Positions 4,836 to 63,631 of a DNA stretch of 64,000 nt are shown here, in pieces; within the stretch, counting starts at the first letter, position 1; each line of letters begins with the position of its first letter. The stretch comes from Octopus sinensis. Taxonomy: Eukaryota. The notes beneath the pieces were generated by a model. That model was not told where the DNA came from. It did not search any database and was given only the letters and a program-made list of their open reading frames with translations. The position numbers and the translations under genes are program-made. The DNA lies in NCBI RefSeq assembly GCF_006345805.1, contig NC_043009.1, forward strand, positions 54,374,001-54,438,000, written 5' to 3'.

Positions 4836-4893
4836 CCGGGTCTGATGAGAGTAGCGTCATTGTCAAAATGTATCGAAACCGCCGTGAACCTGG
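4836..4893 (+). ncRNA. degenerate type I hammerhead ribozyme motif
   Basis: CCGGGT-CTGATGA-helix II-GAAAC-CGCC-GTG-A-ACCTGG; helix I CCGGGT/ACCTGG pairs. Cleavage triplet is GUG, so probably inactive. Confidence 0.6.
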
Positions 4894-5116
4894 CAAAAAG
4901 CTGAAGATATAACCGCTTCTATTTTACTGGGGTTTTTTTCTCTTTGCTCCTTTTGTCTTTTTCTTTTTCTTCTTAGTTTCTTGGTTCTCTTAGGTCAAAG
5001 TTGACGAACAGACAAACATTAACGATATGGACCTATGAAACTAGACTACAAGTGTTGATGTGTTATATATGAAATAAACATTTTATGGGATTTCTTATAC
5101 CTTAAAGGATTTTTTA

Positions 5117-5562
5117 GGCGTAGGTGTGGGTGTGTGGTAAGTAGCTTGCTTACGAACTACATGGTTCCGGGTACAGTCCCACTGCGTGGCGTCTTGGGCA
5201 AGTGTCTTCTACTATAGCCTCGGGTCAACCAAAGACTTGTGAGTAGATTTGGTAGACGGAAACTGAAAGAAGCCCTTCGTATGTATATATATATATATAA
5301 TATATATATATATATATATATATATATGAGTGAGTTTGTGTGTGTGTGTGTGTGTGTGTGTGTGTGTGTGTGTGTGTGTTTGACCCCCCCCCCCAACATC
5401 GCTTGACAACCGATGCTGATGTATTTACGTCCCCGCTTCGGAAAAGAGATCGACACAATAAGTACTAGGCTTCCAAATAATAAGTCCTGGGGTCGATGTG
5501 CTTGACTAAAGACGGTGCTCCAGCATGGCCACAGTCAAATGAGTAAAACACGTAAACGAGTA
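5117..5562 (+). mobile_element. tRNA-derived SINE, family A (full length, internal TA/TG microsatellite)
   Basis: tRNA-like head, CORE-like cttgggcaagtgtcttctactatagcc segment, internal (TA)n(TG)n, tail ggtgctccagcatggccacagtcaaatga. Confidence 0.92.
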
Positions 5563-58831: not shown

Positions 58832-59198
58832 GACCGACTGGCACTCCGTCGGTTACGATGACGAGGGTTCCAGTTGATTCGATCAACGGAACAGCCTGCT
58901 CGTGAAATTAACGTGCAAGTGGCTGATCACTCCACAGACACGTGTACCCTTAACGTAGTTCTCGGGGAGATTCAGCGTGACACAGAGTATGACAAAGCTG
59001 GCCCCTTTGAAATAGAGGTACCACAGAAACAGGAAGAAAGAGTGACAGAAAGGTGTGCTGAAAGAGTACAGCAGGGTTCACCACCGCCTTCTGCCGGAGC
59101 CTCGTGGAGCTTTAGTTGTTTTCGCTCAATAAACACTCACAACGCCCGGTCTGGGAATCGAAACCGTGATCCTAACCACTGGGCCATTGCGCCTCCAC
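58832..59198 (-). mobile_element. chimeric SINE: family B head + family C 3' region, in (TACA)n
   Basis: 59020-59198 matches 608/11901; 58838-59020 matches 3205-3385. Confidence 0.85.
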
Positions 59199-62100
59199 AT
59201 ACATACATACATACATACATACATACATACATACATTGCAGCTCTTATGCGCTAACTATAAATTCTCATTCGTACTTATTAATATAAGCGCAGTTATGTA
59301 CCACGAAATTTACTCAAAAACCTAGAAATAATAGGGGTTTTTTTTTTTGTAGAAAGAACAAAAGAAGCTGACACGTATTCCCTGAATCTAATCTGTTAGT
59401 GACACAGTGAAGATCTGTGAGACAATCTAAAGTTTCTCCATCTGAGATTCTTTTGGTGCATAGATGCACGCGTTTCGATGTGTGTATCGACGGGTCAATC
59501 AACACACCAACTCACCCGCATATTTACAAACACCGGCAACTCTCTTTCACGAAGTCGTCTTGTCACGTTGACTCTCTTAAAAAGACCTAATATAAAAATC
59601 AAAGAAAAAACACCTAGATAATGGTGCGGTCAACGTCGGACGTGCAGGTAGGTGTAAAATTTCATTTTGAACGCTTTTTTTTTTACATTTATGCCAACTC
59701 CCCCAGCCTAAATCAGTTTATATCTCCATCGATGAATAAGGGAAACGACTTTTTCTTATGAACATACCGTTATACAGACCGGGCTTTTCAGACGTGGAAT
59801 TTCGCTGACGTTATCATGTCTGCAATTAATAACTACCGCACCGACAAAAGCAGCACGACATTACCAATAAGCTATTTAAGAAGACATAATTACGCTTCTC
59901 GTTTTATTTGAACTCTACATCTAAACCAAGATTCCTGTAAGTGGAACAATAAAAATATGCAGTACATTTTTCAAATTTAAAATGTGACATTGTTTTTGCT
60001 ATATACATTCCAACGATGGAGTTATTTATCTTTGTAAGGAGCAAAGTCCTTCCTCAGAGGCAAAATTTAAATAATTGAAAGCAGATTAGAACATACACAC
60101 ACACAGACACGTACATACACACACACATACACACACACACACACACACACAAGCACGCCCGCTCGCACACACACACACACACATACACACGTACACTCAA
60201 TTTTTAGACTGGAGTAACGTAAAATAAAGTGTTTTGCTCAAGAACACATCATATCGCCCTGTCCAGGAATCGAGACTACCATCTAACAATCATGAGTGCA
60301 ACACCATATGTATGCATATATATATATACATATATATATATATATATATATATATATATATATATATATATATAATATATATATATATATATATATATAT
60401 ATATGCACATACATAGAGGTTTACGTGTGTGATAGACTCTGTCGATTCGAAGATTTAGAATCAGCTAAAATGATATGCGATATTCACTGATATTCTGTTC
60501 TCTAATTCCACATAGCGATGGACTCAAATTTCTCTTTCGGGTTTGATAAGCAAAATGCGATTTAGATATGAGGTGATTCCACTTCTCTCGCTTACTTAAA
60601 CATGAATCCTCTCTCTCCCTCGATTTCACTCTCTTTCTCCTTCCTTATCTCCCTCTCTCTCTCTCTCTCTATCTCTCTCCCATTCTTTCCCTCTGTCATG
60701 AAAAGTATACATTGTGTAGAGATAGAAATGACCTTTTTCAGATTCAAAATACTCAACGCTCTAATTCTAATTCACCGCCTAAATCTACATGTGTGTGTGT
60801 GTGGTGTACATATAGATATAGTTCTACAGATATGTATATATATATTTATGTATATATATATATATATATATATATATATACACATACATATATAGACATA
60901 GATATATACACTTATAAATAGATGTATATACGCATACATATATAGACATAGATATATATACTTATAAATAGATATATATATACACATATATATATATGTA
61001 TATATATATATTTGTATGTATATATATATATATAGAGAGAGAGAGAGAGAGAGAAATATATATAGATATATTATACATATATGCTGATTACGTATGTTTG
61101 TCTATGTATATGTATATATGTGAATATATACCTACGTATCTCTGTATGTATAATAATTTGTTGCGAAATTCAGTATTGTTGAGGACAAAATTTCTAGACA
61201 TTAATAATTGATCATTAACTTTTCCGAGGTCATTTTGAGCAAAACTCTATTGCTGAATGTCACAAAGTATTCGTAATAAATATCCTTACTCGGCGTTAAA
61301 TGGCTTGATTCCATTATGCTGGTAATTGCCAATCTTGTTCACGAACTAGCATTTTCAAATACATATGTATTGGTGTATATGTATATGTATATACGTATCT
61401 ATATATATACATACATATATATATATATATATATATATATATATATATATATATATATATATATATAATATATATATATATATATATATAGAGAGAGAGA
61501 CACACACACAAAGATACATATGCATAGTTATCCCTATATATATGTATATATATATATATATATATAGAGATAGATATATATATATATATATAAGCATACA
61601 GTCATAATATAAACATACATACATCCACATATATATGTGTACGTATTCATAAAATATATTGATGCAATTAAGTTTTTAACAATATAGACTTTTACATGTA
61701 CTTAGCTACTCGTAATAATCTAAAGATGAGTGCATAGGTGTATTTATATAGAATTTTATACACGCCCACCCATTTATGTCTGTATTTATGTTCGGATGTA
61801 TGTATGAACATACGTCAATATGTGTGTGTATACCAACATATATGATTGTGTATTCATAGAATTTATAGATTTCATTAACTCTTTAACAATATAGAATTTT
61901 ATAAACACTTAGGCACTCAATGATAGGAAGTTGTATAAGTGGATGTATCAATATAGTTGATTTCTTCTTTAAAAAAGGTGTGTGTGTCTCGAAGTATTGT
62001 GTCTATGGACATTGTAGTAAGCTGTGAGTATATAAAATGAATAAAGGTGTGCATGCACATTGTAAAGTATTGTATGTGTATGAGCAAAATGAATTTTCTT

Positions 62101-63631
62101 ATGTGTCTGTGTGTGCTTCTATTCATGGAGGTAGCTACGACAACTCGATTTCCTGATTAAATTCATAGAGTCGTGTTGCTTTGAGATGGAATATTATCTG
62201 ATTTTTTTGCATCAAACCAAAGATAACGGACGGCTTCTGTGTAAGGCAATGCCGAAAGTGGAGAGGGAGAGAGAGGTAGGTTCGGCTAAGCTGAAATTGC
62301 GAACGACTGGAGACCGGATCTCGTTCATTCGTATGGTTCAAGATGTTCAGGAAAGCAATCCTGCTTGTATCCATCTAGTGTGGCTTACATAGCATTTTTC
62401 TCATTTAATGCATCAAGTGAGGGCCTTGAAGGTGAATGTTGAACACCTCGAGATAAGGACAAGTGATAAGGGAGTTTTCATTGGATGAGCACTGCAGCTT
62501 CTAGCGTTTCTACGAAATACAAATGCTAAGCATGCCATATAGATAACGATTTAAATCTAGAGCTGCTTCTTCTACATAATTTGAATTTTATTCAGATGAG
62601 CCAGTTAGTTGTTTCTTCCCTGTGTCTATATAATTCCAATTGGCCAGGATGGATTCCTGTTGGAAGTAGCGCGAGTGCTTGGCATTGACAAGTCGCACAT
62701 GTTCAAATGCATATCCTGACATTCTTGCAGTCGCTTTGGAGGCGATTTCGTTTCGTCTGGCTTTGAAGTATATTGTTTTTAACGTAATATATCTATAAAG
62801 GTATCCGTTCCCAGACGAACGTTGTAACTTCTGTCGTTTCTATGGTATAAATACATTAAATATGACATATGCAGTATATGGGGGTGCACGCATGCGCATA
62901 TATGTGTGTGTGTGTGTGTATTTATGTATTAATGAATGGAAAGAAAACAGGAGTCACGTAATCACATTCATTAACTTACAGCTGTTTCTGCTATAGGAAG
63001 CTGTGCTGTCAGAGCAGGGTGTTTGTACAAATCTTTTTCATGGCTCCGAGGAAGCTATAGCATATTGCACAAGCAATCACCTCTGAATGCATTGCTCTTC
63101 ATAACAGGGGTAGTTATGAGCTAAAACAAATAATTATTTGATTCCTGCTCTCTTGTTATTCATTAATTAATATTACAGTCTGTACAGACCTAATGCGTTG
63201 CTCTAAACTATAGGTATATTGTGCTCTAACTACTGGTTAGTGGCGTCGCTGAGCCTTACCGAAATCATGCATGTGTGTGTTTATATCAACCCCTACAAAA
63301 TTCCTATTTGGCTGAATCACCCTCTTCGAGAAATACACAATCACATCTTCTCCTTGTCTTATCCCTTTGTTACCAGTCTTTCCTAGTTTATCAATTTCAT
63401 TTAGTTTCTCAAACTCGATCATTCTTTATTCTCAACATTTGGATGTGGGCATTAATAAAAATTATATTTACTGATTGTAGGACACCTGATAGTAAGGTTA
63501 ATACCAATAAATCAATTGTTTGTATTTTCTTAGAATCTTCTCTGTTGAGTTTTTACATATTTGCAAATTAAACGGACTGCTCGCGAAGATGATTTCGATT
63601 GAAACCATCTGCAAGTCATGCCGATATAACT

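Follow-up and report, generated by a model that had tools for sequence, protein, structure and literature searches.

Hammerhead-shaped motifs at the locus

Motifs resembling the hammerhead ribozymes of Penelope-like elements (PLEs) are dispersed through a 64-kb stretch of the Octopus sinensis genome (contig NC_043009.1, positions 54,374,001 to 54,438,000), referred to here as the window. The window is 33% GC and microsatellite-dense, and the genome searched comprises 2.72 Gb (G000, contig C13). A sequence-only reading had listed such motifs from 4836 to 62977, and hammerhead-shaped sequence is found at every coordinate in that list (Table 1). The site at 33117(-), listed as a half-motif, is a complete motif with an A3-U8 core. 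The half-motif at 62977(-) does consist of a right half only, but the left half of its inverted partner (63044-63061(+)) had been missed, as had the inverted partner of 35957 at 36435-36453(+). The motifs at 56572 and 57383 are both present but represent one insertion inside a tandem duplication of ~800 nt, whose copies are 97.5% identical. Helix III had been described as mostly palindromic; seven right halves in the window are palindromic, 25857(+) among them, but the 38953/39006 motif has an odd loop and helix III of 4836 is non-palindromic.

Hammerhead numbering follows standard usage and the papers cited, and sites are named by core position (Table 1). The type I core (U4 G5 A6, A9, G12 A13 A14, A15.1-U16.1, H17) is present at 23203, 23950, 33144, 36058, 38986, 39010, 56576, and 57387, and fails at 4842 (G17) and 62988 (left half missing). 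A literal C3 plus G8 consensus does not hold at 33144 (A3-U8), 23950 (U3-A8), or 36058 (U3.G8), although the Watson-Crick 3-8 pair itself is retained at the first two. Family majorities, built from the best 25 to 30 genomic copies per family, have helices I, II, and III around the core, whereas the helices are broken in window copies 23203, 56576, and 57387. By the same comparison, four copies look intact (23918, 33116, 38953, and 39006) and the others are damaged.

The sites collapse to eight independent insertions, seven in genome-wide repeat families (155 to 1,634 first-look candidates each) and one single-copy, which agrees with the earlier estimate of about one motif per 7-10 kb. The single-copy site, 4836, is the weakest, with its non-palindromic helix III and G17, and searches by DNA, pattern, and protein returned no relatives. 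A TGA within the 4842 core closes a short frame (4705-4845(+)) whose tail is endonuclease-C-terminus-like by eye; relatives of this frame were not found.

Table 1. Hammerhead-shaped motifs and other features, in window coordinates
Feature	Position	Strand	Core name	Remark
Hammerhead-like motif, single-copy	4836-4893	+	4842	6-bp helix I, intact boxes, non-palindromic helix III, G17
Inverted, truncated partner of 23199 element	23006-23070	-		retains G1.1
Hammerhead of young Hydra-type PLE family, ATAT loop	23199-23279	+	23203	G1.1 to A (vs family majority) breaks first helix I pair
Intact minimal hammerhead shape, known U3-A8 core	23918-23953	-	23950	PLE 3' end; endonuclease directly upstream in 12/25 loci
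Complete minimal type I hammerhead shape, A3-U8 core	33116-33148	-	33144	helix I 4 bp, helix II 2 bp, palindromic helix III; 3' end of Neptune-type PLE
Long-helix-II hammerhead, GATC loop	35957-36062	-	36058	C3 to U vs family majority; old family, ORF link not found
Inverted partner of GATC element, right half only	36375-36465	+		right half at 36435-36453(+)
Hydra-type hammerhead shape, intact, inverted copy	38953-38990	-	38986	unpaired base each side of helix II, odd-loop helix III
Same Hydra-type motif as 38953, forward copy	39006-39043	+	39010	TCAGA family; Hydra-type endonuclease ~1.2 kb upstream in L467, L474
GGCC-loop hammerhead, core intact	56574-56654	+	56576	47-nt deletion removes helix II 5' arm; ORF link not found
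Tandem-duplicated copy of 56574 element	57385-57465	+	57387	carries same 47-nt helix II deletion
Right half of AGCT-loop hammerhead	62975-63000	-	62988	5'-truncated in helix II
Left half (U4C core) of AGCT element's inverted partner	63044-63061	+		its right half decayed
Possible third endonuclease relic, weak	15373-15513	+		tblastn E 0.009
Neptune-type GIY-YIG endonuclease relic, broken	19356-19594	+		tblastn E 5e-11, solid
Hydra-type GIY-YIG endonuclease relic, broken	27346-27669	-		tblastn E 9e-22, solid
Mariner-type transposase (Pfam Transposase_1) and long interspersed element (LINE) fragments	42554-43429(+), 48706-49053(-), 53439-54314(-), 17464-18243(-), 35253-35609(-)			last three by eye only

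Frequency above chance and genome-wide density

Motif frequency exceeds that of dinucleotide-shuffled sequence. Palindromic right halves (GAAAC-palindrome-GTH) number 7 in the window versus a mean of 0.35 in 200 block-wise (local) dinucleotide shuffles, none of which reaches 7. When an upstream CTGANGA is added, 5 remain versus 0.12 with at most one mismatch, and 3 versus 0.01 with an exact box. It is extremely improbable that the sites are chance matches in AT-rich repetitive DNA. A loose descriptor does return two weak, chance-like matches in the window, and 4836 stands without relatives, but the shuffle controls, the reversed-pattern controls given below, and conservation within families exclude chance for seven of the eight events, 4836 being the exception. 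Weak hammerhead-like matches were noted at 10556(+), with U3-A8, at 19050-19145(+), with a palindromic right half at 19134, and at 25857(+), also with a palindromic right half.

Across 40 content-blind 10-kb stretches taken at round coordinates on 25 contigs, 400 kb in all, there are 20 right halves, where ~2 are expected by scaling the window shuffle rate, the sample itself not having been shuffled for right halves. The window is about twice as dense as this sample (Poisson P 0.045 for 7 motifs and 0.22 for 5 events); hammerhead density is a genome-wide trait and is unremarkable here.

The motifs had also been said mostly to adjoin (TA)n, and (TA)5 or longer indeed lies within 110 nt 3' of 8 of the 11 motif copies; for reference, 33% of non-TA positions lie within 150 nt of such a tract on either side. 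In each family, the median distance from cleavage site to microsatellite is 42-130 nt. Rfam hammerhead families give no match at gathering score in the window and 11 loci. A search of the window at E up to 1 returned microsatellite-like miRNA models, with hammerhead absent among the matches listed (best 150 of 347).

Association with Penelope-like endonucleases

Four of the seven window families are tied to an upstream PLE endonuclease frame. A GIY-YIG endonuclease frame lies upstream on the same strand in 5/30 loci of the ATAT family (~530 nt before the query), in 12/25 loci of the U3-A8 family, where it is adjacent, and in 5/25 loci of the A3-U8 family, a count that leaves out a sixth match, to an unrelated element. 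In four A3-U8 loci (L177, L181, L190, and L196), the endonuclease ends ~270 nt upstream of the query, while two TCAGA loci share 1.3 kb that begins in the endonuclease, ~1.2 kb upstream of the motif. In U3-A8 and A3-U8 loci, fragments of reverse transcriptase (RT) lie before the endonuclease. RT and endonuclease together are found upstream of the motif, on the same strand, in the A3-U8 and U3-A8 families and in a G3-C8 family described below, and endonuclease in the ATAT and TCAGA families. Pfam places GIY-YIG above cut-off in L201 and L407, and RVT_1 in L202. The nearest named protein to one element of this genome is from Octopus vulgaris, with 58% identity. Judged by published motifs (PMC8557442; Craig et al. 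2021) rather than by a tree, the ATAT and TCAGA families appear Hydra-like and the A3-U8 family Neptune-like.

These upstream frames support the PLE origin proposed from the sequence alone in four families. For GATC, GGCC, and AGCT, and for site 4836, extension searches gave no convincing link to a PLE open reading frame (ORF), which counts against a PLE origin of the whole set. An RT in L003 and an ORF in L450 were rejected as GATC-family links owing to an intervening TA tract or another repeat, L450 being also without the motif. The RT beside a GGCC copy in L120 ends at a TA tract and is not a link either.

The unlinked families are nevertheless likely to be PLE 3' ends as well. Inverted truncated partners and microsatellite 3' ends recur across families, bearing out the suggestion of insertions with inverted, truncated pseudo-long terminal repeats (pseudo-LTRs), and copies of the GATC, GGCC, and AGCT families have variable 5' ends, often an inverted partner, and a 3' end at a microsatellite, like those of ORF-linked families. 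As ORF-linked families have untranslated tails of 0.5-1.2 kb, old families would rarely retain the ORF. It is on these two grounds that we consider it unlikely that the three families are non-autonomous elements, retrozyme-like or short interspersed element (SINE)-like, mobilised by PLE proteins rather than truncated autonomous PLEs. That possibility draws on GGCC copies, whose shared upstream stretch of at least 1.25 kb contains no ORF, on the GATC and AGCT families being likewise unlinked, on the hammerhead-bearing 359-nt tandem repeat that exists outside the window at L373, and on a preprint in which animal retrozymes are derived from PLE pseudo-LTRs (bioRxiv 10.64898/2026.07.22.740005).

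For the window as a whole, retrozymes had been offered as an alternative source, which does not fit the sites. Animal non-LTR retrozymes (PMC7229834; bioRxiv 10.64898/2026.07.22.740005) carry, as here, a type I hammerhead in dispersed repeats, but the window sites are not head-to-tail monomers of 170-400 nt. Elsewhere in the genome, tandem 359-nt repeats have a hammerhead in each unit (L373:2011-2400; same-strand pairs), with C3-G8 in some arrays and U3-A8 in others; these arrays resemble non-LTR retrozymes in which positions 3 and 8 covary within a single family.

Families with swapped 3-8 core pairs

A CUGANGA box is absent from long copies of the 33117 family, in which helix II is preceded by A3 U4 G5 A6 N7 U8 A9; helix I comprises 4 bp and helix II only 2 bp, and the palindrome is ACCGGU. 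For the exact A3-U8 pattern, the genome has 631 matches (reversed-pattern control, 0), and 1,168 are found with positions 3, 7, and 8 free (control, 8). Among 100 listed of the latter, a hand count gives 61 A-U, 22 U-A, 11 C-G, and 6 unpaired, so that 94 are Watson-Crick. Fourteen divergent rows that were fetched represent sister families with an endonuclease match of roughly 45-85%, and 12 of them have A3-U8. Among the sister families, loop II and base 7 vary, and one helix I pair is changed on both sides (compensatory). In the alignment (A1), from which three metagenome chance rows were left out, 93% of cells pair across 42 distinct copies and 10 cells have a two-sided change. As most of these cells stem from a single lineage-level change, helix covariation, which the sequence-only reading had named as a check, is modest within this lineage. 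A family with the A3-U8 helix I but another 3-8 pair has no match in the genome. Metagenome matches to the pattern (75 stretches, both helices in 1/75) were taken as chance. In the A3-U8 family, the C-terminal GIY-YIG endonuclease is preceded by a CX2-5CxxC linker (Neptune/Nematis-type).

A second swapped core came from the content-blind sample, which contains two G3-C8 motifs; the family has no copy in the window. With positions 3, 7, and 8 free, its pattern has 5,103 genome matches (control, 1), and G3-C8 is present in 91 of 100 among the matches listed (hand count). Position 17 is U in the listed rows, so a G3-C17 pair is avoided, and helices I and II are present in the predicted minimum-energy structure of the motif (z -3.1). 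Locus L363 has, in order, an inverted pseudo-LTR, endonuclease, 1-kb tail, motif, and (TA)n, and in 19/25 loci selected through the family's endonuclease the motif follows 780-1,130 nt downstream. At L405:1488-5577 (G000:C16), an RT-endonuclease frame that is open over 1,042 residues lies 913 nt before the motif; it has no Pfam match at E 0.1, but 180 homologues. The family, which is a young PLE family, has a CX2-5CxxC linker before the C-terminal GIY-YIG, DKS for DKG, and a microsatellite-rich 3' tail of 1 kb. Its element is covered in four contig sets of guessed RNA status, contigs that cannot show RNA ends or expression. An old U3.G8 family (L481, L484, L486, and L488-L490) has helices I and II as in the G3-C8 family and a non-palindromic helix III.

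In 1.94 Mb of fetched DNA, a descriptor that leaves positions 3 and 8 unconstrained gives 222 matches in 23 groups (three shuffles: 1, 0, and 2), most of this DNA having been chosen by family searches, so that match counts are not independent and only group counts inform. By majority, the 23 groups comprise 15 C-G, 4 U-A, 2 A-U (one family), 1 G-C, and 1 U.G, 22 of them Watson-Crick; among families other than C-G, 6/7 are Watson-Crick at 3-8 (P about 4e-4 at chance 0.2). In this one genome, core position 3-8 is represented by all four Watson-Crick pairs.

In a further hammerhead class (L281-L305; 4,379 matches, control 3), helix I is short, helix II is flanked by an unpaired base at each side, and both U4 and C4 occur; an ORF upstream was not found in 25 loci. 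Unpaired bases on both sides of helix II were dropped as a novelty, being already present in published Hydra-clade motifs (PMC8557442).

Relation to known hammerheads

As first described, the motifs are known biology, namely the published Penelope pseudo-LTR hammerheads, and the swapped cores are the new part. Metazoan PLE pseudo-LTR hammerheads (PMC4209133; Cervera and De la Pena 2014) share with those here a motif after the ORF, a short palindromic helix III, an extra base after A9 (several families), thousands of mostly solitary copies, opposite-strand pairs, and a U3-A8 variant. All 56 rows of Figure S3 in that paper are C3-G8, U3-A8, or U3.G8, whereas A3-U8 and G3-C8 also occur here, and several families here differ in having helix II inserts of 50-90 nt. 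The 38953/39006 motif matches the Hydra-clade description (PMC8557442) in its unpaired base each side of helix II, odd-loop helix III, and (TA)n targets, and the endonucleases of the ATAT and TCAGA families agree with that of the clade, in which CxxC and CxH surround the conserved E and N. However, U4C is common here, while the cores in File S2 of that paper are all C3-U4, and the clade is assigned here by motif. Neptune/Nematis-type PLEs combine GIY-YIG with a CX2-5CxxC linker as the A3-U8 and G3-C8 families do; these two differ in their swapped hammerhead cores. That 3/8 covariation maintains a tertiary pair, as here, was described by Perreault et al. (2011; PMC3088659), where the natural covariation is U3-A8.

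In the literature searched, which includes PMC3884650, PMC6765202, and PMC10085705, natural 3-8 forms are C-G, U-A, and U.G only, a natural A3-U8 or G3-C8 hammerhead was not found, and G3-C8 is present only as an engineered C3G/G8C mutant; nor was an octopus hammerhead study found beyond PMC8557442. Lunse 2017 (PLE hammerhead variants) and the Terminon paper lie outside that search. Lunse 2017 could already hold A3-U8 or G3-C8 cores, and the priority of the swapped cores is not fully cleared.

Proposed origin and activity of the motifs

We conclude, with good confidence, that the sites are 5'-truncated 3' ends of several PLE families, each ending in a type I hammerhead-shaped motif likely to cleave its parent RNA weakly, and that in at least two lineages the motif persists with A-U or G-C in place of the usual 3-8 pair. 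In established PLE biology, the GIY-YIG endonuclease nicks AT-rich DNA, and reverse transcription begins shortly downstream of the hammerhead and often stops early. In the anole PLE (PMC11167929), AT-rich DNA is preferred by the endonuclease, and reverse transcription starts inside the RNA downstream of the hammerhead. Together, AT-rich nicking and early-stopping reverse transcription would let short hammerhead-bearing fragments accumulate in (TA)n at a fixed distance from the microsatellite. Self-cleavage is probably only weak. Minimal PLE hammerheads do not cleave as monomers and cleave at a low level as dimers (PMC4209133), and cleavage in the anole PLE requires protein (PMC11167929). Cleavage here would require a dimer formed through the palindromic helix III, or the help of the element's protein; solitary, damaged, or inverted copies, such as those of the window, would be mostly inert; and selection on parent elements may have maintained both the fold and the swapped cores.

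More tentatively, and with rather less than even confidence, we propose that the A3-U8 and G3-C8 motifs in high-copy Penelope families of this genome are functional hammerheads, the first natural ones with such cores. The 3-8 pair would thus exist in all four Watson-Crick forms in nature, CUGANGA searches would miss the swapped cores, and some "hammerhead-less" elements would carry them.

Several observations, besides the selection of the DNA surveyed, the three unlinked families, and the lack of a family for 4836, weigh against these conclusions. Eight of the 10 two-sided cells in the A3-U8 alignment are one lineage-level A-U to G-C change, and the two-sided helix II change of the window copy is seen in 1/72 copies. 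As a monomer, that copy is not predicted to fold into a hammerhead (z +0.9), nor does dimer prediction give a double hammerhead at minimum energy for either A3-U8 or G3-C8 copies. The predicted G3-C8 fold includes an additional pair of G3 with U17, which could trap an inactive form, and the old family with the helix I of the G3-C8 family has a U3.G8 wobble in 21/34 matches. In a complete double-mutant study, only C3G/G8C rescued, other changes being low and A3-U8 weak (PMC9901934); yet U3-A8 is natural (PMC3088659) though unrescued there, so context matters.

It is conceivable, though on the unlikely side, that the swapped-core motifs no longer cleave, their shape being retained in some other role, for instance as a signal by which a PLE protein binds or is positioned, or carried passively. 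Anole PLE hammerhead mutants insert unimpaired in vitro, and RNA-seq ends at the cleavage site were not found (PMC11167929); to this may be added that A3-U8 is not a rescuing swap in PMC9901934 and that the A3-U8 helix II has only 2 bp. However, three separate swaps each restore a Watson-Crick 3-8 pair (the 6/7 families above), which is relevant only to the active fold, other core bases stay constant while loops change, and C3G/G8C partly restores cleavage of a PLE hammerhead (PMC11167929).

Almost all hammerhead search patterns include C3 and G8, the latter being part of the catalytic site. If young retrotransposons thrive with A3-U8 or G3-C8, there are two alternatives: these cores cleave, so that the natural sequence space and the ribozyme census become larger, or the fold is retained without cleavage, which is relevant to the question of the role that PLE hammerheads play. 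With its four natural core pairs, this genome offers a ready comparative set.

An effect on host transcripts had also been raised. We consider it quite improbable that window copies cleave host pre-mRNA and affect a host gene, even with four intact-looking copies and a motif class that is abundant genome-wide. Ten window frames scanned against Pfam returned transposon domains only, with no host exon identified, and most copies are damaged. Moreover, minimal PLE hammerheads are inactive as monomers and low as dimers (PMC4209133), one helix II deletion affects both members of the sole same-strand pair, and the two copies of an inverted pair would anneal into a long hairpin.

Other features of the window

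Of three GIY-YIG relics reported in the window, two are solid and the third is weak (Table 1), and no listed motif lies next to any of them. At 63628(-), a candidate YIG relic was dropped, as it sits within a common unrelated repeat. A decayed hammerhead of a further small family (16 candidates) at 19576-19642(-) runs antisense to the 19356 endonuclease relic and overlaps its end. A 113-nt tandem repeat is present in four copies at 40711-41164. Within 29145-33300, near-identical blocks at ~29.7-30.0 and ~31.6-31.9 kb, together with repeated TAGA tracts, suggest a local duplication of ~1.9 kb.

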